From a phage, in the sequence record PZ334583.1: a DNA stretch of 45,069 bases; one strand, written 5' to 3'. A model generated the notes under the pieces. That model had not been told where the DNA came from, did not search any database, and saw only the letters and a list, made by a program, of their open reading frames with translations. Of this stretch, positions 3,252 through 29,154 are shown piece by piece. A program made the position numbers and the translations under genes. The number at the start of each line of letters is the position of its first letter. Position 1 is the stretch's first letter.

Positions 3252-3465
3252 GTTTCTAGAAGTTCTGGCAGGTCTTATTGGCCTGCTTGTCTCTGCTAAG
3301 AAGAAACAAGAAGAGAAGGAGGCACAAAGTGAAGCGAATCATGTTAGTGACAACCCTTCTGATTGGTTCGCTGACCACTTCCGGGTGTCAGCAGGCGTTA
3401 CCAGAGAAAGCAATGGTGAAACCTCTGAGGCCGACGCTGACGGAAGTTTACGAGGTAGACGATAA
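3244..3465 (+). CDS. Putative i-spanin-like protein (N-terminal TM helix then charged region)
   Basis: GTG start; FLEVLAGLIGLLVSA then KKKQEEKEAQ; overlaps the lipoprotein ORF in another frame (Rz/Rz1-like arrangement); short for an Rz, weak RBS. Confidence 0.3.
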   Translation: MNKFLEVLAGLIGLLVSAKKKQEEKEAQSEANHVSDNPSDWFADHFRVSAGVTRESNGETSEADADGSLRGRR

Positions 3466-3538
3466 GGTCTGCTTTAGTAAGCCTGACGCTACAAAATTAG
3501 GTTTGTATATTCTTTCGCTGGAACGCGGATATAATTAA
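3329..3538 (+). CDS. Putative o-spanin (Rz1-like outer-membrane lipoprotein)
   Basis: RBS AAGGAGG 3314..3320 then GTG 3329 (or ATG 3341); lipobox LTTSGC; Pro-containing mature region with a second Cys; overlaps 3244..3465 in a different frame. Confidence 0.45.
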   Translation: MKRIMLVTTLLIGSLTTSGCQQALPEKAMVKPLRPTLTEVYEVDDKVCFSKPDATKLGLYILSLERGYN

Positions 3539-3567
3539 TACATAGCTTTATGTATCAGTGTCTTACG

Positions 3568-3590
3568 ATTTACTGGACACTATAGAAGAG
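3568..3590 (+). promoter_or_regulatory. Phage RNAP promoter, putative +1 G at 3585
   Basis: gatttactggacactatagaagag, perfect consensus, upstream of tailspike 1. Confidence 0.85.
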
Positions 3591-3669
3591 ATAAGATAGC
3601 GCCGTTCTTTTGAGCGGCCTATTACTAGCCAATCTTCATAGGGAGGGTTGGAAAGTAATAGGAGATAGT

Positions 3670-5568
3670 ATGGCTAAATTAACCAAACCTAATACTGAAG
3701 GAATCTTGCATAAAGGACAATCTTTGTATGAGTACCTTGATGCGAGAGTTTTAACATCAAAGCCGTTTGGTGCTGCAGGTGACGCCACTACTGATGATAC
3801 GGAGGTTATAGCTGCTTCATTAAACTCTCAGAAAGCTGTCACAGTCTCAGATGGTGTATTCTCTAGCTCTGGTATTAATAGTAATTACTGTAACTTAGAC
3901 GGTAGGGGTAGTGGCGTGCTAAGTCACCGTTCCAGTACAGGTAACTACTTAGTATTTAACAATCTACGTGCAGGTCGCTTAAGTAATATTACGGTAGAAA
4001 GTAATAAGGCGACTGATACAACTCAGGGACAGCAGGTATCTCTTGCTGGTGGAAGTGATGTTACTATAAGTGACGTTAACTTCTCAAACGTTAAAGGTAC
4101 TGGTTTCAGTTTAATAGCATGCCCTAATGGTGAGCAACCTAACGGGCTTATGATTAAAGGCATTCGAGGTAGCTACTCCGGCTATGCTACTAATAAGGCC
4201 GCTGGATGCGTACTTGCTGACTCCTCAGTTAACTCTCTCATAGATAACGTCATTGCTAAGAGCTATCCTCAGTTTGGAGCTGTAGAGCTGAAAGGTACAG
4301 CCAGTTATAACATAGTAAGTAATGTTATAGGGGCAGATTGCCAACATGTAACTTACAACGGCACTGAAGAGGTAATAGCTCCTTCTAATAACCTTATCAA
4401 GGGTGTGATGGCTAATAATCCTAAGTATGCAGCGGTTGTTGCAGGCAAAGGAAGTACGAACTTAATCTCAGACGTGCTCGTAGATTACTCAACTTCTGAT
4501 GCTAGGCAGGCTCATGGTGTTACCGTAGAAGGGTCTGATAACGTCATAAATAATGTTCTTATGTCAGGATGTGATGGTACTAACTCTTTAGGACAAAGGC
4601 AGACTGCTACAATTGCACGCTTTATAGGTACAGCTAATAACAACTATGCGTCTGTATTTCCTAGCTACAGTGCTACAGGTGTTATTACTTTCGAATCCGG
4701 CTCTACCCGTAACTTCGTAGAGGTAAAGCACCCTGGCAGGAGAAATGACCTTCTCAGTTCTGCTAGTACTATTGACGGTGAAGCTACTATTGACGGCACT
4801 AATAATAGTAACGTAGTGCACGCACCCGCCTTAGGGCAGTACATAGGTAGTATGTCAGGTAGGTTCGAATGGCGGATTAAGTCCATGTCACTACCTTCAG
4901 GCGTTCTTACTTCGGCTGATAAGTACAGAATGCTTGGGGATGGTGCTGTGTCATTCGCTGTAGGTGGGGGCACTTCTTCTCAAGTTCGCCTATTTACTTC
5001 TGATGGTACTTCTCGGACAGTGTCCCTCACCAACGGTAACGTGCGTCTTTCTACCAGTAGCACAGGATATTTGCAGTTAGGTTCTGATGCAATGACCCCA
5101 GATAGTACTGGTACATACGCATTAGGTTCCGCCAGTAGAGCATGGTCTGGCGGTTTTACTCAATCAGCATTCACTGTTGTCTCAGATGCTAGGGATAAAA
5201 CAGAGCCCCTTATTATCTCAGATGCTTTACTGGATGCTTGGTCTGAAGTTGACTTTGTGCAGTTTCAGTACTTGGACCGAATTGAGGAGAAGGGTGCAGA
5301 CTCAGCTAGATGGCACTTCGGTATCATCGCTCAGCGAGCTAAGGAGGCTTTCGAACGTCACGGTATAGATGCACACCGCTACGGCTTCTTGTGCTTCGAC
5401 AGTTGGGATGATGTATACGAGGAAGATGCCAATGGCTCTCGTAAACTGATTACACCAGCAGGTTCCCGCTACGGTATTCGTTACGAGGAAGTACTGATAT
5501 TAGAGGCTGCATTGATGCGACGGACTATTAAGCGTATGCAGGAAGCACTAGCTGCCATTCCTAAGTAA
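3670..5568 (+). CDS. Tailspike 1: beta-helix capsule depolymerase-like with C-terminal intramolecular chaperone (peptidase S74) domain
   Basis: ATG 3670 (MAKLTKPNTEG...) with RBS GGAG; Ser/Thr/Gly/Asn-rich repetitive body typical of a beta-helix; C-terminus VSDARDKTEP...WHFGIIAQ...GIRYEEV matches the auto-cleaving chaperone domain of endosialidase and K5-lyase tailspikes. Confidence 0.9.
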   Translation: MAKLTKPNTEGILHKGQSLYEYLDARVLTSKPFGAAGDATTDDTEVIAASLNSQKAVTVSDGVFSSSGINSNYCNLDGRGSGVLSHRSSTGNYLVFNNLRAGRLSNITVESNKATDTTQGQQVSLAGGSDVTISDVNFSNVKGTGFSLIACPNGEQPNGLMIKGIRGSYSGYATNKAAGCVLADSSVNSLIDNVIAKSYPQFGAVELKGTASYNIVSNVIGADCQHVTYNGTEEVIAPSNNLIKGVMANNPKYAAVVAGKGSTNLISDVLVDYSTSDARQAHGVTVEGSDNVINNVLMSGCDGTNSLGQRQTATIARFIGTANNNYASVFPSYSATGVITFESGSTRNFVEVKHPGRRNDLLSSASTIDGEATIDGTNNSNVVHAPALGQYIGSMSGRFEWRIKSMSLPSGVLTSADKYRMLGDGAVSFAVGGGTSSQVRLFTSDGTSRTVSLTNGNVRLSTSSTGYLQLGSDAMTPDSTGTYALGSASRAWSGGFTQSAFTVVSDARDKTEPLIISDALLDAWSEVDFVQFQYLDRIEEKGADSARWHFGIIAQRAKEAFERHGIDAHRYGFLCFDSWDDVYEEDANGSRKLITPAGSRYGIRYEEVLILEAALMRRTIKRMQEALAAIPK

Positions 5569-5575
5569 GCAACAG

Positions 5576-5597
5576 GCAGTGCGTAAGCACTGCTTTT
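5576..5597 (+). terminator. Intrinsic terminator-like hairpin between the two tailspike genes
   Basis: gcagtgc-gtaa-gcactgc perfect 7-bp stem followed by tttt. Confidence 0.6.
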
Positions 5598-5653
5598 CAC
5601 GCAACTTTTCTTAAAGGTTATCACGGTGGTAGCCTTTCAGAAAAGGAGGTTAC

Positions 5654-7837
5654 ATGCTACAAAGATTAGGGGCAATGTTTGTTCGGTATAAAAATAAAGT
5701 AGGTAATGCTATCGAGCGTACACTACAAAGTAAATTACAGGATGTAGTCAGTGTAAAGGACTATGGCGCCATTGGTGATGGGGTATATCGTTCACTTGGT
5801 GATAAATTTACCACGTTAAGTATCGCACAAGTAGTATACCCACATGCTGAAAGTTTAACTCAATCGCAAGATTGGGCGGCTATTCAGGCTGCACTTAATT
5901 CTCACTCAAAAGTGTACATTCCAGCAGGTAGATACATGCTATCTGATACCATTGAGATGAGCGGAGGTCAAACTCTGCAAGGTGACGGTATTGACTCTTG
6001 GGTTGCAGGTTATGCTGGGTTTGTACAAGATAGGCAAGGCACTCACCTTATAATGGTGGGAGATGGCAATAAGAAGTATACATTAGATCATGTATCTAAC
6101 TTCGATGTAGAAGGTGGTGTCATAGACAACCCAGCTAAGAGTGATTCTTATACTGCCACTGCACCTTCCCCTAATTACTCATTTACTAACTTCACTAATG
6201 CTAACGCCTCTGGTGCACAACGTGCTACATTGAAACCTTTCAGCGTAGCATTACGTTGCACAGGTCACGGTGGTGTTTACCTTCGTGACTTCCGTATTGT
6301 GCCTAATCACAGAGGGCAAGAAGGTTATAAGGATGAGTTGTCAACTGCATTAGGGGACGCATGGGATGTAGGTATTTGGCTGGAGAATACATCTGACTCA
6401 GTGTTATCTTCTGTGCAAGCAGTAGGTTACTGGCGCATTGCAGGTGTTATGAAGACTTGTATACCACAAGATGGTTCCTTTGTTGGTGGAGAGCGTGATA
6501 GGATATACAATTGCACATTACAAGGTTATCGTGGCTTCTTAGCACGTTCGCATGATACTTACCAAGTAGAAGAAGTATCAGGTAACACTGTATCGATTAA
6601 GTGGTCTGCATCTCACACTTTCGAACCTTCTGGTAAAGTTCGTATCCAAGGGAAAGACCGTAGTTATACTAGCCTGTCTGTATCTGGTGACAAATTAGTT
6701 TTCACTGGTATTGACGATGTATCAGATATTAATACCAAGAGCTATGTGAGAGTTTCAGGGTCTTCATTCGGAATGTCTGCTACTCAACTAAATAACACAT
6801 ACATCGCTGCATTAAACCATCATGCTCGCTTGCCAGCGACCTCTAATCTTTTAGATAATAGGTTTTCTACTTCGGCAGCTTGCTATGAAGTTGCAGGTGA
6901 ACCAATTCGTGCCATAAAATTATCTAACTGTACTGTCATTACTTGGGATGACATCTTAGGTATGACTGGTGGTATTAGGGACTTCCAGACGACAGATACT
7001 TACTTCGAGTCTCAGCCTTTCCGTACTTCTGTGCAAGGCTTGGCAAGCACCACACAACCTGCTGGTTCTCGCATGATTGCACTTCGTGGACGTCAAGGTT
7101 CTAAAACTACAGGCTATCAAGCTATCGGTTGTACTTATGGGCCGGGTGTAGACCTAAGCCCTCGTTATGAAAGCGATGTATCTCGTTACACAACTTCCGG
7201 TGGTATGTTCAATCCAAGAGAAGATTTGAACACAACTAAGCAGTTACCAATGAGGCAAGACGCTACTGAGCTATCTTCTACTTCTGGCTTATTCCTTACA
7301 CATGCTGTAGGTGGGAAGGCCTATGTTGGCGCTACCTCTGGTGATGCAACGCTTCAATCTAGAACTGGATCATTGAATATCCAATCAGGACTTCGTGTAC
7401 GCATTGGTGGCACTGATGGTAGTGGTTGGTATATTGCTGACAGTGCTAAGTTGACACCTACTGCTGACAATGCAAGGGCTTGTGGACAACCTAATGGACG
7501 ATGGACTGTTGTCTATGCTGTTAATGGTACAATCCAGACTTCTGATGGTAGATTCAAGGAAATCCTTGAGATTGAACAGGCAGAACTTGATGCTGGTCTT
7601 GAATTATCAGCAAACCTAATTAAGTATCGGTGGAATGGGGAAGATAAAATTCACTTTGGTTGCATAGCACAAGAAGTGATGTTAATCCTGGAGAAACATG
7701 GCCTAAACCCATTACAATATGATATGGTTCAGTATGATGAGGAGGCAGACATCTTTGGGGTAAACTATGCTGAACTCAACAGCTTCTGTATTGCAGCATT
7801 ATCGAGGAAGTTAAATGCCATTAATCAGATCAGTTAA
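5654..7837 (+). CDS. Tailspike 2: pectate-lyase-like beta-helix with C-terminal intramolecular chaperone (peptidase S74) domain
   Basis: 727 aa; RBS AAAGGAGG; VKDYGAIGDG motif (pectate_lyase_3-type beta-helix N-cap); C-terminus TSDGRFKE...IHFGCIAQ...GVNYAEL is the S74 chaperone. Confidence 0.9.
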   Translation: MLQRLGAMFVRYKNKVGNAIERTLQSKLQDVVSVKDYGAIGDGVYRSLGDKFTTLSIAQVVYPHAESLTQSQDWAAIQAALNSHSKVYIPAGRYMLSDTIEMSGGQTLQGDGIDSWVAGYAGFVQDRQGTHLIMVGDGNKKYTLDHVSNFDVEGGVIDNPAKSDSYTATAPSPNYSFTNFTNANASGAQRATLKPFSVALRCTGHGGVYLRDFRIVPNHRGQEGYKDELSTALGDAWDVGIWLENTSDSVLSSVQAVGYWRIAGVMKTCIPQDGSFVGGERDRIYNCTLQGYRGFLARSHDTYQVEEVSGNTVSIKWSASHTFEPSGKVRIQGKDRSYTSLSVSGDKLVFTGIDDVSDINTKSYVRVSGSSFGMSATQLNNTYIAALNHHARLPATSNLLDNRFSTSAACYEVAGEPIRAIKLSNCTVITWDDILGMTGGIRDFQTTDTYFESQPFRTSVQGLASTTQPAGSRMIALRGRQGSKTTGYQAIGCTYGPGVDLSPRYESDVSRYTTSGGMFNPREDLNTTKQLPMRQDATELSSTSGLFLTHAVGGKAYVGATSGDATLQSRTGSLNIQSGLRVRIGGTDGSGWYIADSAKLTPTADNARACGQPNGRWTVVYAVNGTIQTSDGRFKEILEIEQAELDAGLELSANLIKYRWNGEDKIHFGCIAQEVMLILEKHGLNPLQYDMVQYDEEADIFGVNYAELNSFCIAALSRKLNAINQIS

Positions 7838-7964
7838 GCAAAGTGCTGTACGCCAGAACACAGAAGAACCTATTCAATCAGGACGTAACCCTAAGCAGGC
7901 TTATGCCATTGCCAAGGATGTACAACGTCGTGCCATGAAGAAACCTTCTGCATCTTCTGCGTAA
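7815..7964 (+). CDS. Small basic ORF (49 aa) overlapping the tailspike 2 stop
   Basis: ATG 7815 with RBS GAGGAAG 7803..7809; MPLIRSVKQSAVRQNTEEPIQSGRNPKQAYAIAKDVQRRAMKKPSASSA; last ORF before the terminal non-coding region. Confidence 0.35.
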   Translation: MPLIRSVKQSAVRQNTEEPIQSGRNPKQAYAIAKDVQRRAMKKPSASSA

Positions 7965-7976
7965 GCAGGTTAATAT

Positions 7977-8020
7977 CTTAGTGTACACAAGGGCAGACCT
8001 AGGTTTGCTCTTAGTGTATT
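7977..8020. repeat. Right-flank array of CTTAGTG heptamer repeats (SRR-like)
   Basis: cttagtgtacacaagg...ctcttagtgtatttac; same heptamer family as the 8320..8920 array. Confidence 0.5.
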
Positions 8021-8034
8021 TACAATGGAGGTCT

Positions 8035-8050
8035 TATATATATATATATA
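8035..8050. repeat. (TA)8 dinucleotide repeat
   Basis: tatatatatatatata read directly. Confidence 0.9.
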
Positions 8051-8147
8051 CCTATGGAAGCAATAGTAAGTTGCCTATGCTTGTTGATAGGTTTCGTTAT
8101 AGGCTTAATAGTAAATCCTTAGTCCTGTACAAGGGTTAACCAAAGTC

Positions 8148-8162
8148 AAAAAAAAAAAAAAA
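8148..8162. repeat. A15 homopolymer
   Basis: 15 consecutive A read directly, followed by a GC-rich block ctcgccctcgccctcgcc. Confidence 0.9.
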
Positions 8163-8319
8163 TTTGATGTAGGCGTGTGTCAGCTCTCTCGCCCTCGCCC
8201 TCGCCGGGTTGCCCCCATAGGGTGGCCTGAGGGAATCCGTCTTCGACGGGCAGGGCTGATGTGCTCCTTGGATAGTACAAGGGAGGCGGAGGGAACGCCT
8301 AGGGAGGCCTAGGAATGGC

Positions 8320-8920
8320 TTAGTGGTGGACAAGGTGATTGCCTTAGTGAAGCCTCTTAGTGCATTCCTGAGGCCATTCAGGGCGTTTATGAGGTATTGA
8401 CAAGATGGAGGGGGGCGTGGGCTATCTGTTCGTTTCGTTCACTCCGCTTGCGCTACGTTCACTCGCTCACGTGTACCTTAGGCTATTCCTTTATGGATAG
8501 CTTAGGTTATAGCTTAGTGGCCTACCTTAGTTATAACCTTAGTGCATAGCTTAGTATCAGCTTAGTAGTGTACCTTAGTAAGTCTTAGTGTCTTCTCTTA
8601 GTGATTGCACATGCAAGCATGTAAGATGCCATTAGGTCGCGGTCGGTAGACCGCTAAAGAAGGAGAATAGTAATAAGATGCAGTAGGAGGAACACCAGAA
8701 GCCTAGCCAACCTAAGCTATCCTAGCTCTATATCTATTGCTTTTCCTTAGTCTAACACGTTAGACAACCTATCTTTTTCTTAGTGATGGTAACTTAGTGT
8801 TGACAAGATAATCTTAGTGTAATACTATGCATCACGTAGGCGGTGCTGAGGCACCTAGTAGCCAGCTAGTAAGGCATACGAAGAGACTAGCGCTTACATT
8901 GCTCTTTAACAATTTGCTTA
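8320..8920. repeat. Left-flank array of about 20 dispersed CTTAGTG / AGCTTAGT heptamer repeats (SRL-like), interspersed with host-type promoters
   Basis: ggcttagtgg, gccttagtga, cctcttagtg, tagcttaggttatagcttagtggcctaccttagttataaccttagtgcatagcttagtatcagcttagtagtgtaccttagtaagtcttagtgtcttctcttagtg, and further copies at 8780..8920. Confidence 0.7.
8800..8828 (+). promoter_or_regulatory. Candidate host sigma70 early promoter
   Basis: TTGACA (8800..8805), 17-nt spacer, TACTAT (8823..8828); sits in the early leader as the T7 A promoters do. Confidence 0.4.
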
Positions 8921-8971
8921 GTGTAACCTATGTATGCCGTGGTTAACTACTTATTGAATGAGGTATTAACT

Positions 8972-9151
8972 ATGACATTAAACAACCGTGAACTGTCCGT
9001 TATCTTCACTCTGTTGTGCTACATGATTCGTAACAACGAATTACTTACAGACGATGAGTTAGCCTTGTATCACCGCTTTCTTAACGAAGGTTGGACCGAT
9101 ACAGTTAATCAATACCGTAACATGATAGATGAGTTGAGGGAGGGTAAATAA
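8972..9151 (+). CDS. Early hypothetical protein (59 aa)
   Basis: ATG 8972 with GAGG 8 nt upstream; ORF-track frame 8930..9151. Confidence 0.5.
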   Translation: MTLNNRELSVIFTLLCYMIRNNELLTDDELALYHRFLNEGWTDTVNQYRNMIDELREGK

Positions 9152-9375
9152 TGTATCAACATGAGGTATTCTTTGAATCAGCTAGCGAAGCTATTCGCTT
9201 CCGTGATGATATGATGCAAGCTGGCGTAGGTGTTGATGTGTATCACTATTTGATAGATTACGACACTGAATATCACCGAGTTACCTTAGTGACTGAGTAT
9301 GATAACCAAGTCATCACTGAGTACTTAGGCAGTGAAGATTACGATTACGATGAAGTAATCACGACAAATCTCTAA
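9151..9375 (+). CDS. Early small highly acidic protein (74 aa), possible DNA-mimic-type anti-host factor
   Basis: RBS GGGAGGG; Asp/Glu/Tyr-rich (EYDNQVITEYLGSEDYDYDEV); TAATG overlap with the upstream gene. Confidence 0.6.
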   Translation: MYQHEVFFESASEAIRFRDDMMQAGVGVDVYHYLIDYDTEYHRVTLVTEYDNQVITEYLGSEDYDYDEVITTNL

Positions 9376-18649: not shown

Positions 18650-21182
18650 TTGGAAGAAGGAGGCAGAAGGTCGTATCCTCGTGATGGATGCGGAAGCTAA
18701 AGGACTCCTTGACGCTATCCGATATGGACACCGTGAAGATGTGCATATCATTTGCTGCATGGATTTGCTTACTACCGAGGAGTTTCTCTTCTTTGACCCG
18801 TATGAGATGCGTGACCCTGAAGCAAGAGAACGCCTGAAGGAATGGGAAGGTCATCAAGATGGAACCTTGGTTGACGGTGTTAACTTCCTGAAGCATTGTG
18901 AAGCTATTGTGTCACAGAACTTCCTAGGGTATGACGGACTTCTCTTTGAGAAAGCATTCCCTGATATTTGGAAAGGCTTTAACTATACCGAGAAGCGCGG
19001 TAAGGGCAGACTTCGTGCTGACCTGTGTCCGGTGCGAGTCATGGATACGCTGGTGATGAGTCGCCTGTTAAACCCCGATAGACGCCTTCCTCCGCAAGCA
19101 TATGCCAAAGGTATGGGTAACGTCGCCCCTCACTCAATTGAGGCGCACGGCATCCGTATAGGTCGCTATAAACCGGAGAACGAGGACTGGTCTAAACTAA
19201 CTGACCACATGGTTCACCGTGTACGTGAGGACGTGGCGATTGGTCGTGACCTATTCCTCTGGCTATTTAACGGAGAATGGACGGAGCACAAACGCCGTGG
19301 CGTGAATAAACGCACTGGCCTAGGTATTGAGACAGCCTTCCACATGGAGTCCATTGTGGCGCTGGAGATGAGCCGTCAGGCCGAGCGCGGGTTCCGTCTG
19401 GACATCGACAAGGCTTTGGCCCGATGCGAAGAATTGGACGCTAAGATTGATGAGACAGTCGCAGCGTTCCGCCCTCACATGCCTATGCGTATCAAGTCTA
19501 AACCTTTTAAACCGGAAGAAAAGAATGAAGTATGCCAACGCGCAAATGAGTATGGAGCTAGCAACAATATACCTACTGTCCTTGACCCCTCACACTTTCT
19601 TCATGCCGAGAGACGAGGAGATCGCAAGACAGTATGGAGTGTCACTACTAAGTCTGGTGATTGGTCGGCTAGTGTCAAGAAAGATTTTCCTCACCTTAGA
19701 GGAAACCGTAATGACACGCCAAGCATCAAGTGGATTGGCGCTTACTCGCCTGTTACTTTCGAAGAGATCCCCTTGGGTAACAGGGATACAGTTAAGCAAG
19801 TGCTCTATGAGTATGGATGGAAAGGTGTTGAATTTAACGATACCGAGCAAGCTCATCTCGATGAGCACGGAGTGTTACCAAAACCTTGGAGTGGTAAGAT
19901 AAATGAAAAGTCCCTCACTTTATGGCAAGAAAGAGCCGCACGTGAAGGTAAAACAGTCCCTGATTGGTGCTTGGGTATCGCTGCATGGTACATACTCGTA
20001 TCCCGTCGTGGTCAGATACTCAACCGTGGTGACGTTGAAGCCTTCAACGAGAAGGGAACGTGGCCCTCGCAGGCTGGTGTACGAAAGTGTCGCGGCCTTG
20101 TACCTGTAGCATTCAACAAGGAGCTAGGAATCAATGCGCAGCAATACTACGAGAGGTACGGATGTTGGCCTACGTCTGACAAAGATGACGGAGAGTGGCG
20201 TGTTCCAGCTGTTGCTATTAGCATTGGCACTTCTACGTTCCGTATGCGTCATCGTAACGTGGTTAATATTCCTGCCCGTGGCTTGTATCCTTTACGTGAT
20301 TTATTCATAGCAGGGAAAGGCAAGCTAATCCTTGGTTGTGACGGTGCAGGTCTTGAACTGCGTGTCCTGTCTCACTTCATGAATGACCCTGAGTACCAAG
20401 AGATTGTACTGCACGGTGATATTCATACGCATAACCAGATGAAGGCTGGTCTTCCTAAGCGTGATATGGCGAAGACGTTTATATACGCCTTCCTCTATGG
20501 CTCTGGTATAGCCAACCTTGCAGCAGTATGTGGTGTTACTGAGGAAGAAATGAAGGAAGTTGTGGCAAGATTCGAGATTGAACTGCCGTCTCTTGCACGT
20601 CTTCGTGAGAATGTTATCGCACAAGGTAACAAGTTTGGCTACCTGCAAGCACCTGATGGGCATTGGGGTCGCATCCGCATGTCTGGTGGTGAACTTAAAG
20701 AGCACACGATGCTTAACGTATTACTCCAGATGACTGGCTCTTTGTGTATGAAATATGCATTAGTCAAGGCATTTGCAGTAATGCGCAAGGAAGGTGTAGC
20801 CTTGGATGCTATGGGAAATCCTTGTGGTGTGGCTAACGTGCATGATGAAATCCAGATGGAAGTTCCTGAAGAGGAGGTCTTGTATCTTAACTACGACCTA
20901 CCTTTCACCTTAGATGGGTTCGAAACAGAGAAGGCTGCCGTGAAGGCAGTGTTCGATGCAGAGGAGAAACGTGTTCATGTGGATTCTGAAGGACGTATGT
21001 GGTCTGCTGCAAACCTCGTCAGTGTTGATGCTGATGCTGGTGTATTGCATTGCCAGCGCCGTTATCACCGTGCAGGTCATATCATTGCCGACGCCATGAC
21101 TTGGGCAGGGCAGTATCTGAAGATGCGTTGCCCGATGGCAGGCGAGTATAAGATTGGCGCAAGCTGGAAGGAAACACACTGA
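18636..21182 (+). CDS. DNA polymerase, family A (T7 gp5-like) with 3'-5' exonuclease domain
   Basis: 848 aa from ATG 18636 (RBS GGAG); exo motif ILVMDAEAKGL; polymerase motifs incl. RDMAKTFIYAFLYGSG and HDEIQ. Confidence 0.95.
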   Translation: MKSIDWKKEAEGRILVMDAEAKGLLDAIRYGHREDVHIICCMDLLTTEEFLFFDPYEMRDPEARERLKEWEGHQDGTLVDGVNFLKHCEAIVSQNFLGYDGLLFEKAFPDIWKGFNYTEKRGKGRLRADLCPVRVMDTLVMSRLLNPDRRLPPQAYAKGMGNVAPHSIEAHGIRIGRYKPENEDWSKLTDHMVHRVREDVAIGRDLFLWLFNGEWTEHKRRGVNKRTGLGIETAFHMESIVALEMSRQAERGFRLDIDKALARCEELDAKIDETVAAFRPHMPMRIKSKPFKPEEKNEVCQRANEYGASNNIPTVLDPSHFLHAERRGDRKTVWSVTTKSGDWSASVKKDFPHLRGNRNDTPSIKWIGAYSPVTFEEIPLGNRDTVKQVLYEYGWKGVEFNDTEQAHLDEHGVLPKPWSGKINEKSLTLWQERAAREGKTVPDWCLGIAAWYILVSRRGQILNRGDVEAFNEKGTWPSQAGVRKCRGLVPVAFNKELGINAQQYYERYGCWPTSDKDDGEWRVPAVAISIGTSTFRMRHRNVVNIPARGLYPLRDLFIAGKGKLILGCDGAGLELRVLSHFMNDPEYQEIVLHGDIHTHNQMKAGLPKRDMAKTFIYAFLYGSGIANLAAVCGVTEEEMKEVVARFEIELPSLARLRENVIAQGNKFGYLQAPDGHWGRIRMSGGELKEHTMLNVLLQMTGSLCMKYALVKAFAVMRKEGVALDAMGNPCGVANVHDEIQMEVPEEEVLYLNYDLPFTLDGFETEKAAVKAVFDAEEKRVHVDSEGRMWSAANLVSVDADAGVLHCQRRYHRAGHIIADAMTWAGQYLKMRCPMAGEYKIGASWKETH

Positions 21183-21298
21183 TGGATAGGCTTGACATTG
21201 TTTGCCTATTCTTCACTTTCTTTCTTACACTCCTTATGCTTGCTTGTTATGGGAGTATGAGACTAGATATACCTGATGAAGAAGAGGGTTACGACTAA
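21182..21298 (+). CDS. Tiny hydrophobic protein (38 aa)
   Basis: ATG overlapping the DNAP stop (ATGA); MDRLDIVCLFFTFFLTLLMLACYGSMRLDIPDEEEGYD. Confidence 0.35.
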   Translation: MDRLDIVCLFFTFFLTLLMLACYGSMRLDIPDEEEGYD

Positions 21299-21396
21299 TG
21301 CAAACTGCTTTTATTATTCTTGGTATCATATTATTTATGGTAGTACTCTGGGCCTTCTCTGGCATTGACCCGGATTGTGATGGTAACTACGACTGA
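21298..21396 (+). CDS. Tiny hydrophobic protein (32 aa)
   Basis: TAATG overlap; MQTAFIILGIILFMVVLWAFSGIDPDCDGNYD; similar architecture to the preceding ORF (TM helix then acidic ...YD end). Confidence 0.3.
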   Translation: MQTAFIILGIILFMVVLWAFSGIDPDCDGNYD

Positions 21397-21406
21397 GTTA
21401 TACTCA

Positions 21407-21430
21407 AGGTCACTTACGAGTGGCCTTTAT
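21407..21430 (+). terminator. Weak terminator-like hairpin
   Basis: aggtcac-ttacga-gtggcct then ttat. Confidence 0.35.
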
Positions 21431-21464
21431 GGATAACTTATCCCTACTTATTTTGTCTAACATG

Positions 21465-21487
21465 ATTTACTGGACACTATAGAAGGA
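21465..21487 (+). promoter_or_regulatory. Phage RNAP promoter followed by an AT-rich TAGGT-repeat leader
   Basis: atttactggacactatagaagga; downstream ctaggtttataaggtagtataggtaattaag. Confidence 0.85.
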
Positions 21488-21551
21488 AAGCCTAGACAAT
21501 CTAGGTTTATAAGGTAGTATAGGTAATTAAGTAAATATAGGAGATATAAAC

Positions 21552-21929
21552 ATGTCTATGGTAACTACTCTGGTATTTGTAGCTCAATACTTTCGTGGTC
21601 TGGCTAATAAGTTCAAGTCCAAGGCTATCAAAGCTATTGAGTCTCGCATCGAGGCAGTACAGGCAGAGCAGGTTAAAGTTGAAGAACATCGTAGTTCTAA
21701 AATGATTGACTGCCATAACCGCTACTATGCATCTCGTGATGACCTTAATGCACGCCAAGTCAAAGAGGTTGAAGAGATGCTGGCACGTCACCAGCAAGAG
21801 CGCGACAGTCTGAAAGCTGAATTTGAAGAGAACAAGGCATCCATCGCCCTTGTACATCAAGCCGCATCTGACAGCCTGAAGAAAGAGATTGTTATGCTGG
21901 AAATTGAGTTAGACAACCTGACCAAATAA
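21552..21929 (+). CDS. Hypothetical coiled-coil protein (125 aa)
   Basis: RBS AGGAG; heptad-like charged helical sequence. Confidence 0.65.
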   Translation: MSMVTTLVFVAQYFRGLANKFKSKAIKAIESRIEAVQAEQVKVEEHRSSKMIDCHNRYYASRDDLNARQVKEVEEMLARHQQERDSLKAEFEENKASIALVHQAASDSLKKEIVMLEIELDNLTK

Positions 21930-21950
21930 TTACTGGACACTATAGAACAA
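21928..21950 (+). promoter_or_regulatory. Phage RNAP promoter
   Basis: aattactggacactatagaacaa; overlaps the stop of the upstream gene. Confidence 0.8.
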
Positions 21951-22091
21951 TAGGTCGGCTTAGTTCGGCCTATGATTGTAAAGTGTTGAACCTTATTGTG
22001 CATCTTGCACAACCCGATGCTATATCGGGCTTTCTAGTGAGTACATGCTTGTGCTCAGTACAAAGCTAACTGACAATAGGAGACTAAATAA

Positions 22092-22898
22092 ATGGCACGT
22101 GGTGATTTTGATTTTGGTGCTCAGGTTACTAAGGCTGAAGGTAAAGTATTTAAGAACCCTGAAGTTGGTGATCATGAAGCAGTAATCTCTGGCATCATTC
22201 ATGTTGGTTCCTTCCAAGATATTTTTAAGAAAGGTAATACCACTGAGGTTAAGAAGCCAGCAAACTTTGTTCTTGTTAAGATTATCCTGATGGGTGACGA
22301 CGACAAGAATGAAGATGATTCTCGCATGGAACAGTGGATGGCTGTGCCTCTGAAGTCTGGTGACAAGGCAACCTTGACTAAGTTCCTGAATGCAGTTGAC
22401 CCTAAAGAGCTGCTTGGTGGTTTCGATGACTTCATCGGTGAATGCCTGACTGCAACTATGGTTGGCTCTGGCGACAAGAATGATGATGGTACTTTCAAGT
22501 ATGTTAACTGGAAAGGCTTTGGCGGTATGCCTGATAAGTTGAAGAAGCTTGTACTGGCTCAGGTAGAAGAGGAAGGTCTGTCTATGACAGGTCATATCAC
22601 CTTCGACAAGCTGACCAAAGAAATCCTTGATGACATCCCAGCTAACTTGGTGCGTCAATACTTCCTTAATGAAACACCTCGTGGTAAGAACCTGTCTGTT
22701 GCTGGTTCTCACGTAGAAGCAATCATTAAAGCTGCTCGTGAAGAAGACCCAGAGTGGAAGAAAGCCAAGAAGAAAGATGACGAGGATGCTACTCCAGCTA
22801 ATCGTAAATCTATGGATACTGGTGAGTCTGTTCCACAGGAAGTACCTGAAGCAGAAGATACTCCTGCACCGGAGATGGATGAGGACGCGGAATATTAA
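22092..22898 (+). CDS. Putative single-stranded DNA-binding protein (gp2.5-like) with acidic C-terminal tail
   Basis: 268 aa; Lys-rich body, acidic C-terminus PEMDEDAEY; codon usage of a highly expressed gene; function inferred from composition and position only. Confidence 0.4.
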   Translation: MARGDFDFGAQVTKAEGKVFKNPEVGDHEAVISGIIHVGSFQDIFKKGNTTEVKKPANFVLVKIILMGDDDKNEDDSRMEQWMAVPLKSGDKATLTKFLNAVDPKELLGGFDDFIGECLTATMVGSGDKNDDGTFKYVNWKGFGGMPDKLKKLVLAQVEEEGLSMTGHITFDKLTKEILDDIPANLVRQYFLNETPRGKNLSVAGSHVEAIIKAAREEDPEWKKAKKKDDEDATPANRKSMDTGESVPQEVPEAEDTPAPEMDEDAEY

Positions 22899-22907
22899 GG
22901 AGAAAGG

Positions 22908-23126
22908 ATGAAAGTACAAATCGTAACCCTGCACTGCAAGAAAGGTATCACAACGCTCGGAGGTAGCACTTTCCACTCTTTCTCCGAAGGGGAGATTTAT
23001 GCTGACCTGCACTACATCTGGCGCGACGGACAGCACGTGGTGAACTACAGCGACCCAGCTACGGGGAAACGCCACGGCGTATCGCTTCCTGCGCATGACA
23101 TTGCTCAGGTGAACACAGTTTTATAA
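22908..23126 (+). CDS. Hypothetical protein (72 aa)
   Basis: RBS AAGGAGAAAGG; ORF track. Confidence 0.6.
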   Translation: MKVQIVTLHCKKGITTLGGSTFHSFSEGEIYADLHYIWRDGQHVVNYSDPATGKRHGVSLPAHDIAQVNTVL

Positions 23127-23127
23127 A

Positions 23128-23143
23128 GTCTCACATGTGAGAC
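23128..23143. repeat. Palindrome GTCTCACATGTGAGAC, copy 5, 15 nt upstream of promoter 23159
   Basis: exact sequence read. Confidence 0.9.
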
Positions 23144-23158
23144 AAATCGGTGTCCGGT

Positions 23159-23181
23159 ATTTACTGGACACTATAGAAGAG
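23159..23181 (+). promoter_or_regulatory. Phage RNAP promoter
   Basis: atttactggacactatagaagag, perfect consensus. Confidence 0.85.
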
Positions 23182-23230
23182 AAGAATTTTAATCGGCGAT
23201 AATGCCACAACTAACAAAGGAGAATTTAAT

Positions 23231-23608
23231 ATGTTCAAGATTGAAACTATCGTAAACCGTGTTGTTAAAGGTGCTGCTCTGGTATCCGTTGAGTCTTTCA
23301 TTATCGTCGATGAAGCTGATCAACTGGTAGCTGGTACTAAGGCTTACGATACCCGTGAAGAAGCTCAGGCTAAGATTGACAGCATGGGTAACTTCGCTGC
23401 TGGTCTGGAGTTCGCTCGCGCTTGCTTCCCTGAGCAGGCTGACAAAGCTCAGATTGGTAAGGCCAATATCGTAGCTGAGTATCTGGATTGGATTGCTGCT
23501 GGTAAGCCGGTGAAAGAAGTTAAGGCTGCTGAAGAAGCTGAAGCTCCGGCAGTAGAAGAAGTAGCTGCACCGGTAGATGCTCCGGTAAGCGAAGAAGAAG
23601 AGTTTTAA
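23231..23608 (+). CDS. Highly expressed small protein (125 aa) with acidic C-terminal tail ending ...SEEEEF
   Basis: RBS AAGGAG; Ala-rich; the C-terminal acidic tail with terminal Phe mirrors that of the primase-helicase. Confidence 0.75.
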   Translation: MFKIETIVNRVVKGAALVSVESFIIVDEADQLVAGTKAYDTREEAQAKIDSMGNFAAGLEFARACFPEQADKAQIGKANIVAEYLDWIAAGKPVKEVKAAEEAEAPAVEEVAAPVDAPVSEEEEF

Positions 23609-23620
23609 TTGATGCCCTGT

Positions 23621-23646
23621 CTGCCTTAGTGTAGGCAGGGTCTTTT
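23621..23646 (+). terminator. Terminator-like hairpin
   Basis: ctgcct-tagtgt-aggcag followed by ggtctttt. Confidence 0.45.
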
Positions 23647-23672
23647 GCGTAATAGTTATTGGAGAATGAATT

Positions 23673-23969
23673 ATGCCGACTATTGAATCTCGTTTACGCG
23701 CTGACTATAATAGATACTTTAGCCGCTTACATAGGGATTATATGACACACGTTACAGTATGGTTAGATGATGGGATATTCTTAGTGTATGAGTATTTACA
23801 TGATACGGGTGACCGCTATGACCCTAGTTCCCTCCAAGTAGCAAAGTCTATTGTAGAGCGCATCTTGAAGGAGTGGCCTACATGCGACCAAACTTCGACT
23901 TCGGAGCTACAGTATCGGAAGACAATAATCTCATCCTGTGGCCAACTGAAGGTAATAGAATCGCTTTAA
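23673..23969 (+). CDS. Hypothetical protein (98 aa)
   Basis: RBS GGAG; 3' end overlaps the exonuclease gene by about 88 nt in another frame, so the true extent is uncertain. Confidence 0.5.
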   Translation: MPTIESRLRADYNRYFSRLHRDYMTHVTVWLDDGIFLVYEYLHDTGDRYDPSSLQVAKSIVERILKEWPTCDQTSTSELQYRKTIISSCGQLKVIESL

Positions 23970-24910
23970 TAGACGCTGACATGTTACCTTACATCGTCGG
24001 GTACACTATCAGTGACATGACTTATGTGCGAGCCACAACTCGTGTTAAGTCAGGGCAAGTCCCCTCAATTAAAGACACACCTGAGTGTAAGCAAGCGTGT
24101 GACCGTGTGAACTCCTTGCTTAACTCTTGGGTGTATGCAGCAGAGTGTGATGCAGCTAAGCTATTCATGACGAAATCAGAAGCTAACTTCCGTGTCCGCC
24201 TCGCATTCACAAAGCCTTATAAGGGTCAACGTAAGACCGAGAAGCCTCCGTTCTTCTATGAATTGCGAGAGCATCTCTTAGAGGTTCATGGTGCAATATT
24301 GGCAGATGGAGAAGAGGCTGATGACCTCATGAGCATTGCACAATGGGACAGCCACCGCCGCTTCCAGCAAGATACAGGTAACGAGTTCCCTATCGGTAGT
24401 CCAGAGCATAAAGCATTCTCTGATACTTGCATCGTTTCCTTAGATAAGGATTTGATGATTGTTCCCGGTTGGCATCTTCAGCCGGGTCAAGAGAAGAAAT
24501 GGGTAGAGCCTATGGGTTGGCTTGAGTTACGCCGTAAGGCTAATGGTCAGGTTAAAGACCTTAAAGGTGCTGGCCTCATGTTTCATTATGCACAGATGAT
24601 TATTGGTGATGATATTGATAACTATGCTGGCATACCTGGACGTGGTGCTAAATACGCCTATGATCTTCTCAAAGATTGTAAGACAGAGAAAGAGTTGTAC
24701 ATGGCAGTGCTTGGTGCTTACAAGGCTAAGTTCGGACATGGACAAGTTAAGATTAAGAATTACCGAGGTGGTTATCGTATCGGCAAGGCTTTTGACCTGA
24801 TGCTCGAATGTGGTCGCCTAGCTCACATGGCAAGATTCAAAGGTGATATATGGCGAGCCGATAAGAACCCAATCTTGTGGGGAGATGATGCGGAATGGTT
24901 AGCAAATTAA
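23882..24910 (+). CDS. 5'-3' exonuclease (T7 gp6-like)
   Basis: ATG 23882 with RBS AAGGAG; IALIDADML and SLDKDLMIVPGW correspond to the T7 gene 6 motifs ILVMDGDWL and SCDKDFKTIP. Confidence 0.88.
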   Translation: MRPNFDFGATVSEDNNLILWPTEGNRIALIDADMLPYIVGYTISDMTYVRATTRVKSGQVPSIKDTPECKQACDRVNSLLNSWVYAAECDAAKLFMTKSEANFRVRLAFTKPYKGQRKTEKPPFFYELREHLLEVHGAILADGEEADDLMSIAQWDSHRRFQQDTGNEFPIGSPEHKAFSDTCIVSLDKDLMIVPGWHLQPGQEKKWVEPMGWLELRRKANGQVKDLKGAGLMFHYAQMIIGDDIDNYAGIPGRGAKYAYDLLKDCKTEKELYMAVLGAYKAKFGHGQVKIKNYRGGYRIGKAFDLMLECGRLAHMARFKGDIWRADKNPILWGDDAEWLAN

Positions 24911-25305
24911 AATCATCGGAGGTAGCAGCTTATAAGAGGGAATTGCTAGAGAAGCAAGGATGGAAGTGCCCCCTATGTGGCGGCAGTCTCAAGGCTGTTA
25001 CTCCTATAAACCGTGTACTTGACCATGACCATGAGACAGGATTCTGCCGTGCTGTTGTATGCCGAGGTTGCAATGGTGCAGAAGGAAAGATTAAGGGTGT
25101 TATCTCTGGTTATGGTAAGGCTGGTAACAACCGTTACTTCCAGCTTCAATGGTTAGAGCGACTATATGAATACTGGAAGCTACATAGTACGCCTCAGACA
25201 GATAAGTTATATCACAAACATCAAACGGAGGCAGAGAAGCGCGAGGCTAAGAACCGTAAGGCACGCCTTGCTTATGCAAGAAAGAAGGAGGTTAAAGTTG
25301 GGTAA
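24895..25305 (+). CDS. Endonuclease VII-type Holliday junction resolvase
   Basis: CPLCGGSL...DHDHETGFCRAVVCRGCN zinc-binding signature of the T4 endo VII family. Confidence 0.8.
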   Translation: MVSKLKSSEVAAYKRELLEKQGWKCPLCGGSLKAVTPINRVLDHDHETGFCRAVVCRGCNGAEGKIKGVISGYGKAGNNRYFQLQWLERLYEYWKLHSTPQTDKLYHKHQTEAEKREAKNRKARLAYARKKEVKVG

Positions 25306-26305
25306 GCTTCGCAGCTTGTACAAAGACTCCGAGGTACTTGATGCAATCGAGCAAGCTACCGACGAGAAAGGTAATGTTAATTACAATGAGATGGCACGTG
25401 TATTATCGTGTCACCCTGTGGGTAAGAAGATTACCCGCCAGTTGGCTCGATACTGGCACGGTCAATTCAAGAAGACCAAGAAGAATGGTGATTATTACCA
25501 GACCCTTCTGCAAGAAGATAAGCGTATCAAAGAAGAGCGTAAGCTCAGGACTCCTGACCGCTACGAGGATTTGGCTATTGTACCATTGCCTGACTCGCCT
25601 CATCGAAGTGTACTGGTAATCCCTGATACTCATGCACCTTATGAGCATCCAGATACCTTAGAGTTCCTTGCAGCAGTCGCGGCACGTTACCGTCCAGATA
25701 CAGTGGTTCACTTAGGAGATGAGGCAGATAAACACGCCCTCTCCTTCCATGACTCTGACCCGAATCTGGATAGCGCTGGCATGGAGCTAGAGAAGGCTCG
25801 TGTCTTCATGCACAAGTTGCACAAGATGTTCCCTGTGATGCGCCTGTGTCATTCTAATCACGGCTCTATGCACTTCCGTAAGGCAAGCGCCAAGGGTATT
25901 CCAGTGCAATATCTTCGCACCTACCGTGAAGTTTTCTTCCCAAATGGAGGTGGCGACCAGTGGGATTGGCAGCATACACATGTTCTTGAGTTGCCGAATG
26001 GCGAACAAGTGGCATTCAAGCATCAACCTGCTGGCTCTGTCCTAGCAGATGCAGCGCATGAGCGTATGAACCTTGTGTGTGGTCACTTGCACGGTAAGAT
26101 GTCTGTGGAGTACGCACGTAATACACATGAACAGTATTGGGCTGTGCAAGGTGGCTGCTTAATTGATGAGTCATCCCGTGCATTTGCCTATGGGCGTGAG
26201 TCTAAATACAAGCCAGCATTAGGTTGTGTGGTTATTCTGGAGGGTGTACCTCATATTGTCCCGATGCAAACCAATAGCGACAACCGTTGGATTGGCAAGA
26301 TTTAG
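25298..26305 (+). CDS. Calcineurin-like metallophosphoesterase
   Basis: motifs VIPDTHAPY, HLGDEADKH, CHSNHG, GHLHG; start taken as TTG 25298 after RBS AAGGAGG (alternative ATG 25391). Confidence 0.75.
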   Translation: MGKLRSLYKDSEVLDAIEQATDEKGNVNYNEMARVLSCHPVGKKITRQLARYWHGQFKKTKKNGDYYQTLLQEDKRIKEERKLRTPDRYEDLAIVPLPDSPHRSVLVIPDTHAPYEHPDTLEFLAAVAARYRPDTVVHLGDEADKHALSFHDSDPNLDSAGMELEKARVFMHKLHKMFPVMRLCHSNHGSMHFRKASAKGIPVQYLRTYREVFFPNGGGDQWDWQHTHVLELPNGEQVAFKHQPAGSVLADAAHERMNLVCGHLHGKMSVEYARNTHEQYWAVQGGCLIDESSRAFAYGRESKYKPALGCVVILEGVPHIVPMQTNSDNRWIGKI

Positions 26306-26322
26306 TTGACACTATAGAACAA
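26300..26322 (+). promoter_or_regulatory. Phage RNAP promoter (AGTTG variant, closest to the SP6 consensus)
   Basis: atttagttgacactatagaacaa; overlaps the phosphoesterase stop. Confidence 0.75.
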
Positions 26323-26405
26323 AGGGCTAGGTAAGACTTTATCGGCTGGCGTATCCAAATGATATTGCACTAGCCCTTGATTGTATAGTGAATGGAGGAT
26401 TCAAT

Positions 26406-26909
26406 ATGTCACACTATGAATGTAAGAAGTGTCATAAGCGTTATGATTACTGTACTTGTGGTCAAGAGAAAACATCTTTTAAAGTTGGAGACAAGGTATT
26501 TCGTAATGAAAAAGATTCTATTCCTTGGAATCAATTCTGCAAAGAAGCTGGTATTGACCCTGATAGCCCTGTAACCATAGATGATATTGATGGCATTAAC
26601 TTGTGCTTTCGTGAGGTGAGGGGTACAGGTTGGGATTCCAAAAAATTCAAACTTGCATCTGATAAGTTAGACAACAATATGGTAACTCAGCCTAAGCACT
26701 ACGAGTTCTTTGATGGTGTAGAGGCAATCACTATCATTGCCCGCAGTATGACTGAAAAGCAATTCGCTGGGTACTGCATGGGTAATGCCCTTAAGTATCG
26801 CCTGCGTGCAGGTAAGAAGTTCAATACTGAAGAAGACTTGAAGAAGGCAGACTATTATAAAGAGTTATTCCAGAAGCATCGTCACGAATGTATTGATGAG
26901 GATATTTAA
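26406..26909 (+). CDS. Hypothetical protein with N-terminal Cys cluster and DUF3310-like C-terminal region
   Basis: ATG 26406 with RBS GGAGG; CKKCHKRYDYCTCG; PKHYEFFDGVEAITIIARSMTEKQFAGYCMGNALKYRLRAGKK. Confidence 0.7.
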   Translation: MSHYECKKCHKRYDYCTCGQEKTSFKVGDKVFRNEKDSIPWNQFCKEAGIDPDSPVTIDDIDGINLCFREVRGTGWDSKKFKLASDKLDNNMVTQPKHYEFFDGVEAITIIARSMTEKQFAGYCMGNALKYRLRAGKKFNTEEDLKKADYYKELFQKHRHECIDEDI

Positions 26910-26910
26910 T

Positions 26911-27084
26911 ATGGAAGGTAAACTGTATAGAGGGTACTTCGGTAACTTATATAAAGTAAGCTCTCGCGGTTTTGTATTGACCTCTGATGATGAAGGTGCA
27001 ATGTGGCACCTAAGTGCATATGGTTCTAACTTAGCACACTTTAAAGAGGCAATAGTCAAAGGTGTGATGAAGGAGGTGAAATGA
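26911..27084 (+). CDS. Small hypothetical protein (57 aa)
   Basis: ATG 26911 with GAGGA upstream; in-frame part of track ORF 26893..27084. Confidence 0.4.
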   Translation: MEGKLYRGYFGNLYKVSSRGFVLTSDDEGAMWHLSAYGSNLAHFKEAIVKGVMKEVK

Positions 27085-28028
27085 ACATCTTCCAATTCCT
27101 AGGTCTTCCAGAAGACCACCGCAATCATCCATTCATGCTGGTGAAGCATCGCGGTGAAGTTCCTGAGAAGAAACTTACTTTTCCATGTTATGCACAGGTG
27201 AAACGAGATGGAATATTCAGTGCTGTTGTGGTGCGCAAGGATGGTGCTGTTGCCATCTTTGGTCGTACTGGTAAGAAGCTCGCAAATGTTGAATCCTTGG
27301 AAAAGACATTTAGTGTATTTCCTGTCGGGTTGTATCTTGGTGAGTTGCAATCTATGGCTGTTGATGTTTATCTTGAAGCTCTGTCAGGAGTGGTAAACCC
27401 TAATCGTACAGAGCCACTTGACTTCATAGGCCAGCAGATTAAAGACAACCTGTATATCGACTTCTTCGATATGTTAACTATTAAGGCATTCCATGATGGA
27501 TTCACTGATGTTTCTTATCTCAAACGTTACGATGCTTTACATCGCCGCATCGGCGCTCATCTTAGCGGGTACAACGCTATCCTTCCTATTACTCCTTGCC
27601 ATAATGAGCGAGAAGTTGAAGCGTTTGCGCAAGAGCAGATAGACGCAGGCCGAGAAGGTGCGGTATTTAAACTTGACGTGGAGTACGAAAGTGGGCACAA
27701 GGGCTATCGTCAAACGAAGATCGTTCGTATGGTATCTTACGACCTAACCTGTATTGGGTGGGAGGAAGGAAAAGGTAAGTATAAAGGTAAAGTAGCTAAC
27801 CTCATTTTCAAATGGAAAGGAGGCAAGTCTGTTAAGGCTATGCTGGGTCGTGGCTGGTCACATGAGGATGCAGCCCAAATGTATCACGATATTAAGCACG
27901 GTGGCGAACTGAACGTCATTGGGAAGATCTTCGCTGTCAAGGCGTTGCAGGAATCTAGCAAGGGAGTCCTGAGACTTCCCAAGGTTTCTGAATTACGCCA
28001 CGATAAGGAGGTTCCTGATGTTTATTGA
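27081..28028 (+). CDS. ATP-dependent DNA ligase
   Basis: 315 aa; adenylation motif AQVKRDGIF (KxDG); RBS GGAGG. Confidence 0.85.
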   Translation: MNIFQFLGLPEDHRNHPFMLVKHRGEVPEKKLTFPCYAQVKRDGIFSAVVVRKDGAVAIFGRTGKKLANVESLEKTFSVFPVGLYLGELQSMAVDVYLEALSGVVNPNRTEPLDFIGQQIKDNLYIDFFDMLTIKAFHDGFTDVSYLKRYDALHRRIGAHLSGYNAILPITPCHNEREVEAFAQEQIDAGREGAVFKLDVEYESGHKGYRQTKIVRMVSYDLTCIGWEEGKGKYKGKVANLIFKWKGGKSVKAMLGRGWSHEDAAQMYHDIKHGGELNVIGKIFAVKALQESSKGVLRLPKVSELRHDKEVPDVY

Positions 28029-28143: not shown

Positions 28144-28145
28144 TT

Positions 28146-28343: not shown

Positions 28344-28347
28344 AGGA

Positions 28348-28934: not shown

Positions 28935-28943
28935 GGAGATAAC

Positions 28944-29153: not shown

Positions 29154-29154
29154 T

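Follow-up and report, generated by a model that had tools for sequence, protein, structure and literature searches.

Which host surfaces can a phage address when two tailspike genes stand in tandem, and how freely can either gene be exchanged? The question is raised by the spike module at 3670..7837 of the phage sequence PZ334583.1. The whole stretch of 45,069 bp, referred to below as the window, represents a complete, circularly permuted K1-5-like podovirus genome (Autographiviridae, Molineuxvirinae, Vectrevirus), and all features located in it below lie on the plus strand. Our analysis makes it very probable that the locus is a K1-5-type receptor-recognition module, in which a K5 lyase is combined with an exchangeable second spike. 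A sequence-only reading of the locus had proposed the same K1-5-like logic, i.e. two co-transcribed depolymerase-type spikes with S74 chaperones that are borne by a separate adaptor, and this logic is upheld here. Homologies, motifs, promoter distribution, junction conservation, conservation of RNA pairing and fold were all computed directly. Over its whole length, the 4.3-kb module is 97.3% identical at the nucleotide level to Escherichia phage vB-Eco-KMB14 (OR424384; vKMB14 below), and approximately 100 further phage records align to roughly its first half. Positions 20000..44900 of the window are 96–98% identical to phages EC120, VEc3 and EEc2, with 97.8% over 25 kb for EC120.

Tailspike 1 (3670..5568; 632 aa, 67.0 kDa) is the K5 lyase KflA. 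Its residues 1–505 matched the K5 lyase structure 2x3h in the PDB with an E-value of 0, and the crystal chain stops at the residue that aligns with S505. In addition, 609 of the 632 residues (96%) are identical in K1-5 gp46, the DNA is 96% identical to the kflA record of phage K5 (Y10025), and the protein matches phrog_14895 over its full length. The likeness to K5 lyase-type spikes, which the sequence-only reading had noted from the length of 632 aa and the start MAKLTKPNTEG, was thus borne out. That reading had also left the substrate of this spike unnamed, which can be corrected because of the 96% identity to a characterised K5 enzyme: by close homology to KflA the substrate is K5 heparosan, and spike 1 would degrade this capsule via β-elimination. 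The gene starts at an ATG with AGGAGA 5 nt upstream, in agreement with the K1-5 annotation; the listed open reading frame (ORF) had opened at the TTG at 3610.

Both spikes end in an intramolecular chaperone of the Peptidase_S74 family (PF13884), as claimed earlier. The domain covers residues 505–565 of spike 1 with 50.4 bits (E 2.8e-13) and residues 630–684 of spike 2 with 32.5 bits (E 1e-7), both above the Pfam gathering cutoff of 22 bits. In spike 1 the chaperone extends from the catalytic S505 (with K510) to the end (5182..5565), and in tailspike 2 (5654..7837; 727 aa, 79.0 kDa) from S630 (with K635) to the end (7541..7834), so that both carry a Ser-x4-Lys dyad. The accompanying motifs are SDARDK 505, HFGIIAQ 549 and GIRYEE 602 in spike 1, and SDGRFK 630, HFGCIAQ 667 and GVNYAE 702 in spike 2; of the blocks originally listed, the SDARDK/SDGRFK and IAQ motifs are present in both proteins, and YEE is found in spike 1 only, the spike 2 counterpart being YAE. 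S630 aligned with the catalytic residue of structures 3gw6 and 4uw8, which has been replaced by Ala in both, and K635 with their Lys. The chaperone of spike 1 aligned to the GA-1 neck appendage chaperone 3gud (from residue 1 onward) and to that of endoNF, 3gw6. We take the counterpart of the spikes' Ser-x4-Lys dyad in endoNF to be numbered Ser911/Lys916.

Each spike would trimerise aided by its own C-terminal S74 chaperone, which would cleave itself at the Ser-Lys dyad (S505, S630) to yield mature spikes of ∼52 and ∼68 kDa. The predicted cleavage products are 52.4 and 14.7 kDa for spike 1 (mature residues 1–505) and 68.0 and 11.1 kDa for spike 2 (mature residues 1–630). A review table gives sizes of 67 and 52 kDa for K1-5 ORF46, equal to the sizes predicted here for spike 1.

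How are two different spikes attached to one tail? Neither spike matched Phage_T7_tail (PF03906; gathering cutoff 25.2 bits) in Pfam. The domain was found in the ORF at 43175..44137, where it covers residues 3–153 with 29.7 bits, in line with the earlier claim that the T7 gp17-type N-terminal domain is absent from the spikes and supplied by a separate adaptor. This 320-aa protein is a homologue of K1-5 gp37 (317/320 residues identical, 99%); its T7 gp17-type N-terminal domain would bind the tail, and it would offer two docking sites for spikes. The K5 lyase is known to dock by the heptapeptide MAKLTKP and the endosialidase by the undecapeptide MIQRLGSSLVK (PMC6872550, citing Leiman 2007). The first-site docking peptide of spike 1 (3670..3690) is identical to the K1-5 heptapeptide. 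Spike 2 starts with the second-site docking peptide MLQRLGAMFVR (5654..5686), which shares 6 of 11 residues with that of K1-5: QRL and V are kept, and L/I, F/L and R/K are conservative replacements. The pattern M-x-QRL...V was common to four otherwise different second spikes. For cleavage, docking, stoichiometry and enzymatic action, our account is modelled on work on K1-5, endoNF and KflA. By this analogy, the gp37-type adaptor would receive the N-terminal peptides of the two kinds of mature trimer at separate sites; since the adaptor would sit on the tail by its T7 gp17-like N-domain, each of the six tail positions would bear one spike of each kind.

Transcription of both genes can be traced to one SP6/K1-5-type phage RNA polymerase promoter, ATTTACTGGACACTATAGAAGAG, at 3568..3590, a perfect copy of the 23-nt consensus. 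The window's own version of this consensus had eight matches in the window where none was expected, and the consensus scan returned no phage promoter between 3590 and 10237, consistent with the earlier statement that none precedes the second spike gene. This late promoter would transcribe both spike genes as a single message. It is followed by a structured 5′ leader of spike 1 (3601..3661), in which two adjacent hairpins reach the Shine-Dalgarno (SD) sequence; the leader folded with a minimum free energy (MFE) of −34 kcal/mol (z −5.05; 0 of 200 shuffles). Promoter and leader are essentially identical upstream of spike 1 in K1-5, KMB14 and KMB47, the promoter itself without any difference. Because the leader is invariant in the four phages compared, it provides no covariation evidence. 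The hairpin-to-SD layout of the leader mirrors the one ahead of spike 2.

The second spike gene appears to be exchanged between two fixed junctions. At the 5′ side, similarity among Vectreviruses fades right after the docking peptide of spike 2. At the 3′ side, similarity among phages with unrelated spike 2 bodies returns exactly at ATGCCATTAATCA, the start of an ORF of 49 aa (7815..7964; phrog_2423, E 1.2e-20) that corresponds to gp48 in K1-5. This gp48-like ORF has its first 23 nt in common with the end of spike 2, and second spikes consequently share their final residues whatever body they carry; the four that were compared ended alike in ...A-I/T/N-N-Q/K-I-S. We propose that the spike 2 body forms a cassette whose limits are an 85-nt intergenic element plus the docking peptide at the 5′ side and the gp48 overlap at the 3′ side, and that recombination at both junctions would swap specificities between phages. 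Phage LL11 has been described as carrying the K5 lyase and a different second spike. In the record of KMB47 (OR424385; locus L004, 2545..4312), the second spike is divided between two frames, one with an ORF of 57 aa that includes the docking peptide and the other with an ORF of 556 aa; the cause is a frameshift or else an error in sequencing.

The first slot is exchanged as well. At the amino acid level, spike 2 is 98.1% identical to its vKMB14 counterpart and 97% identical to the one in the Vectrevirus LF31_P3 (OZ035776), which pairs it with a different first spike. The latter (locus L013, 361..2253) has 630 aa, starts with MARLTRP and gave a weak Beta_helix match; a Pfam-type domain scan detected no S74 domain in it. 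The first slot is thus open to exchange too, and a self-cleaving chaperone is not universal among its spikes. With both slots swapped, they behave as independent cassettes between fixed junctions, and the module is a further instance of independent recombination of both spike slots at such junctions.

What kind of protein fills the second slot here? Spike 2 was predicted to be a right-handed β-helix of the depolymerase type. The AlphaFold2 (AF2) model computed from a 90-sequence alignment reached a predicted local distance difference test (pLDDT) score of 88; a run with 17 sequences scored 43 and was discarded. In the confident model, the β-helix is broken by a predicted six-stranded β insertion domain at residues ∼303–351 (6560..6706; strands 303–309, 312–316, 327–331, 334–338, 340–344 and 347–351). 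Residues 271–318 gave a weak local match to residues 137–186 of the LKA1 gp49 chain, and together with the predicted strands this suggests that the insertion is probably LKA1 gp49-like. The first ∼100 helix residues, which form the cap, matched LKA1 gp49 (4ru4; E 2e-18) and phi297 gp61 (4ru5; E 2.4e-19), which were also the best Foldseek matches of the model. Even with family profiles, solved sequence relatives were limited to the cap and to the stalk plus S74 region. Hence the profile and structure check suggested earlier yielded a β-helix model for spike 2, and solved homologues of cap and S74 domain only, not of the catalytic body. NCBIfam contained no name for either spike.

By sequence, spike 2 belongs to a sizeable family. 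Its next relatives after the vKMB14 and LF31_P3 proteins, from Kayfunavirus YZ1 and from a prophage, are 43% identical, and the alignment of the prophage and YZ1 relatives takes in > 90% of spike 2. In a large protein collection, body and chaperone recurred at 41–43% identity in many E. coli prophage tailspikes with varied N-terminal anchors, including PF09008 (P22 head-binding) and PF18668. A search with the catalytic body (residues 110–590) through 1.84 billion representatives returned 321 clusters at 50% identity (E ≤ 1e-3). D238, R298, H389, E412, R419 and E452 are conserved across the family. At 43% identity, the substrate of the YZ1 and prophage relatives may differ from that of spike 2.

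Which polysaccharide, then, would spike 2 attack? It would most likely depolymerise a second E. coli surface polysaccharide and thereby widen the host range. Spike 2 does not qualify as an endosialidase, as it lacks End_beta_propel, End_tail_spike and Asp-boxes in scans that used K1-5 gp47 as a positive control; domain and motif scans agree with the sequence-only reading that neither spike has a sialidase domain or Asp-box. That reading had also proposed dual capsule specificity, although the target of spike 2 need not be a capsule. Spike 2 as a capsule (K-antigen) depolymerase, directed at a group 2 or group 3 capsule other than K1 and K5, is a serious possibility, which we hold with somewhat less than even confidence. 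Spike 2 sits in the slot that is occupied by the K1 endosialidase in K1-5. Its close homologue occurs in vKMB14, which was propagated on an ST131 strain, forms haloed plaques and did not lyse strain CFT073 (PMC11162368); the halos, as well as a host range made up mainly of B2 extraintestinal pathogenic E. coli (ExPEC), commonly with group 2 capsules, speak for a capsule target. So does the fact that YZ1-type relatives of spike 2 span several O-serogroups. On the other hand, homology to capsule depolymerases of known specificity is confined to the generic fold, and for LF31, the strain on which LF31_P3 was isolated, the source table gives no ABC capsule type.

The same strain (B2/ST73, O6:H1, ABC-capsule serotype unassigned) would fit a rival explanation that we consider rather unlikely, in which spike 2 targets an O-antigen, e.g. 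O6, and the phage combines one capsule spike with one lipopolysaccharide (LPS) spike. This explanation draws on the nearest solved sequence relatives, namely LKA1 gp49, which is an O5-antigen lyase, and phi297 gp61, although the similarity covers the cap only; the two also ranked top in the structure search, and the predicted insertion domain resembles that of LKA1 gp49. Likewise, some of the 43% homologues are E. coli prophage tailspikes anchored by the P22 head-binding domain PF09008. However, proteins of the YZ1 type, which is 43% identical to spike 2, are reported at ≥ 95% identity in prophages of O102, O6, O1 and O153 strains, and the authors of the E. coli tailspike study that found these proteins in prophages of multiple serogroups read them as not O-antigen specific. 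CFT073 is O6:K2 and resisted vKMB14, albeit K2 might mask O6. The different first spike of LF31_P3 could equally account for growth on LF31, and this host therefore cannot be credited to spike 2. O6 as the specific target is weakened by both the unlike first spike and the spread of YZ1-type relatives over several O-serogroups. The remaining weight falls to other glycans or to a spike 2 that only binds.

The 85-nt intergenic element (5569..5653) comprises two hairpins followed by the SD of spike 2. Hairpin H1 (5574..5595) has 9 bp with a conserved core of 5577–5582/5587–5592, a GUAA loop and a UUUU tail; in DNA letters it reads GCAGTGC-GTAA-GCACTGC at 5576..5593, with TTTT to 5597. Hairpin H2 (5605..5645) is composed of an outer stem (5605–5609/5641–5645) and an inner stem (5613–5623/5627–5637), and its 3′ foot abuts the SD GGAGG (5645..5649). 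Folding of the 85 nt gave an MFE of −35.1 kcal/mol (z −6.46). The terminator previously assigned to 5576..5597 is therefore confirmed as a hairpin; as a terminator it stands only in part, given that it is followed by four U residues and represents one half of a two-hairpin element, of which 5605..5645 had been missed. In 2001, Scholl et al. reportedly noted that the 85 bases separating the spike genes contain two symmetrical stretches but lack a promoter.

This element is nearly invariant among Vectreviruses with unrelated second spikes, and its length equals that in K1-5. A distant search retrieved it from 112 phage records, including SP6 (Zindervirus), PM93 (Acadevirus), phD2B (Tuodvirus), PP1 (Axomammavirus) and CrRp3. 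From an alignment of eight sequences, which included SP6, PM93, CrRp3, phD2B, PP1 and alia, RNAalifold recovered both hairpins: 5 of 22 pairs were changed on both sides, and 98.8% of the cells were paired. None of 500 shuffles reached the observed values, and slid controls were 44–58% paired. H2 was 98.9% paired, with one- and two-sided compensatory changes, and across five Molineuxvirinae genera the pairing of the element is kept by such changes. A copy with 85.7% identity and both hairpins is present in alia (NC_052655), an unrelated phi92-like myovirus of 147 kb, at 22710..22786; it lies directly 3′ of the tailspike-like gene gp023, and the apex of its H2 is altered yet still pairs. In the search for a donor of this copy, a Vectrevirus counterpart of the gp023 body was not found in the phage collection, and an exact-word scan of IMG/VR gave 12 loci, nine on contigs of ∼44 kb and three on shorter ones.

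What does this RNA do? H1 could stop part of the phage RNA polymerase and thereby reduce spike 2 transcript levels as a partial terminator, a function we regard as possible but more doubtful than convincing. Its GC-rich stem of 7–9 bp, GNRA-type loop and U4 tail are in keeping with such a role, compensatory changes preserve the stem in five genera, and the GenBank record of LL11 labels the equivalent 22 nt as 'terminator'. Yet there are only four U residues, on account of which a simple terminator scan gave no call on the plus strand, and the tails in relatives read UUUC, UUCU or UACU. Moreover, read-through must be substantial because spike 2 is without a promoter of its own, and under the adaptor model the two spikes are required in equal numbers. 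Stability or processing of the mRNA could equally be served by a stable hairpin at a 3′ or 5′ end. A second explanation is somewhat unlikely: the element may mainly serve RNA processing or stability and translation, with H2 (16 bp with an internal loop) as an RNase III-type site or 5′ stabiliser. T7-group phages use RNase III sites between genes. The compensatory changes and near-complete pairing of H2, the contact of its 3′ foot with the SD of spike 2, and the stable hairpins that reach the SD in the spike 1 leader all point in this direction. Conversely, an Rfam search of 3400..8700, intergenic element included, returned no match, and conservation could stem from use as a recombination junction; the compensatory changes nevertheless argue for RNA pairing over mere conservation of a junction. 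Taken together, we put forward as a tentative proposal, unlikely to hold in every part, that 5569..5653 is both a functional RNA (a partial terminator and a processing or 5′-stabilising hairpin that set spike 2 expression) and a portable homology junction for tailspike cassettes, and that spike 2 offers a first handle on a depolymerase family of ∼320 clusters, with a target that is neither K1 nor K5.

Several observations weigh against our reading of the module as a whole. The U-tract of H1 is weak. Profiles of the catalytic body of spike 2 (∼130–590) found no solved homologue among PDB sequences, and the stalk (540–640) was modelled, as a monomer, at low confidence. Since the structural neighbours of spike 2 include both lyases and hydrolases, the fold does not fix its reaction type. 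Host data from vKMB14 and LF31_P3 do not single out the substrate of spike 2. Finally, for this phage, cleavage, virions with both spikes and the activity of spike 2 rest on analogy. We nevertheless consider a K5 lyase plus an exchangeable second spike on a shared adaptor to be very probably the correct description.

The heptamer CTTAGTR occurs 37 times in the window, where 16 copies are expected, and 17 of these copies crowd into the non-coding DNA that follows the spike genes (7977..9291). All 17 are on the plus strand, beside a (TA)8 repeat (near 8036) and a run of A14 (8148..8163), and they probably form a repeat array of the phage genome end or early region.

The value of these results lies mainly in annotation: the window represents a Vectrevirus that would infect E. 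coli with a K5 capsule and probably also cells of a second surface type. This is relevant when therapeutic phages or depolymerases are chosen for use against ST131, ST73 and similar ExPEC lineages. Beyond the literature we found, the analysis adds that covariation supports the two-hairpin RNA between the spike genes and that this RNA also occurs in a myovirus, and it places spike 2 in a sizeable β-helix family without a solved or characterised member.

How does the module compare with known systems? For spike 1, KflA of coliphage K5A (2x3h) is homologous throughout residues 1–505, with few substitutions only. With regard to the chaperones, both spikes can be aligned with endoNF (3gw6) and T5 pb1 (4uw8) at the Ser-x4-Lys dyad, at the HFGxIAQ block and along the stalk segment ahead of the domain; a point of difference is that the domain released from spike 2 is short, with 97 aa as opposed to 127 aa in spike 1. 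Spike 2 resembles LKA1 gp49 and phi297 gp61 (4ru4, 4ru5) in its cap, whereas their catalytic groove shows no detectable sequence similarity to it. LKA1 gp49 has a six-stranded insertion barrel, of which the predicted insertion domain of spike 2 is a putative equivalent, and an active site formed by Asp497/His494/His499 with Arg329 and Arg459. The termini differ: both solved proteins start with a particle-binding domain, in place of which spike 2 has a docking peptide, and LKA1 gp49 ends in a discoidin-like carbohydrate-binding domain where spike 2 ends in an S74 chaperone. The YZ1 receptor-binding protein and the E. coli prophage tailspikes (991-aa and 901-aa forms) share body and chaperone with spike 2 but carry different anchors (T7-type, PF09008, PF18668).

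Among whole modules, vKMB14 has the same spike pair, which was described in 2024; its first spike was reported to be like the K5 lyase of K1-5, and its second to have a pectate-lyase-like domain and < 43% similarity to other spikes (PMC11162368). Outside the module, the window resembles other Vectreviruses, such as EC120, more closely than vKMB14, and it is thus a different mosaic isolate. The layout itself was already known from K1-5 (AY370674; gp37, gp46, gp47), which is alike in gene order, promoter, leader, 85-nt element and gp48 overlap, and in which both spikes likewise end in S74 chaperones (residues 706–763 in gp47). In the window, the two adjacent spike genes lie downstream of the lysis genes, as expected for this type of system. 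The difference lies in slot 2, which holds an 811-aa β-propeller endosialidase in K1-5 and a 727-aa β-helix spike here.

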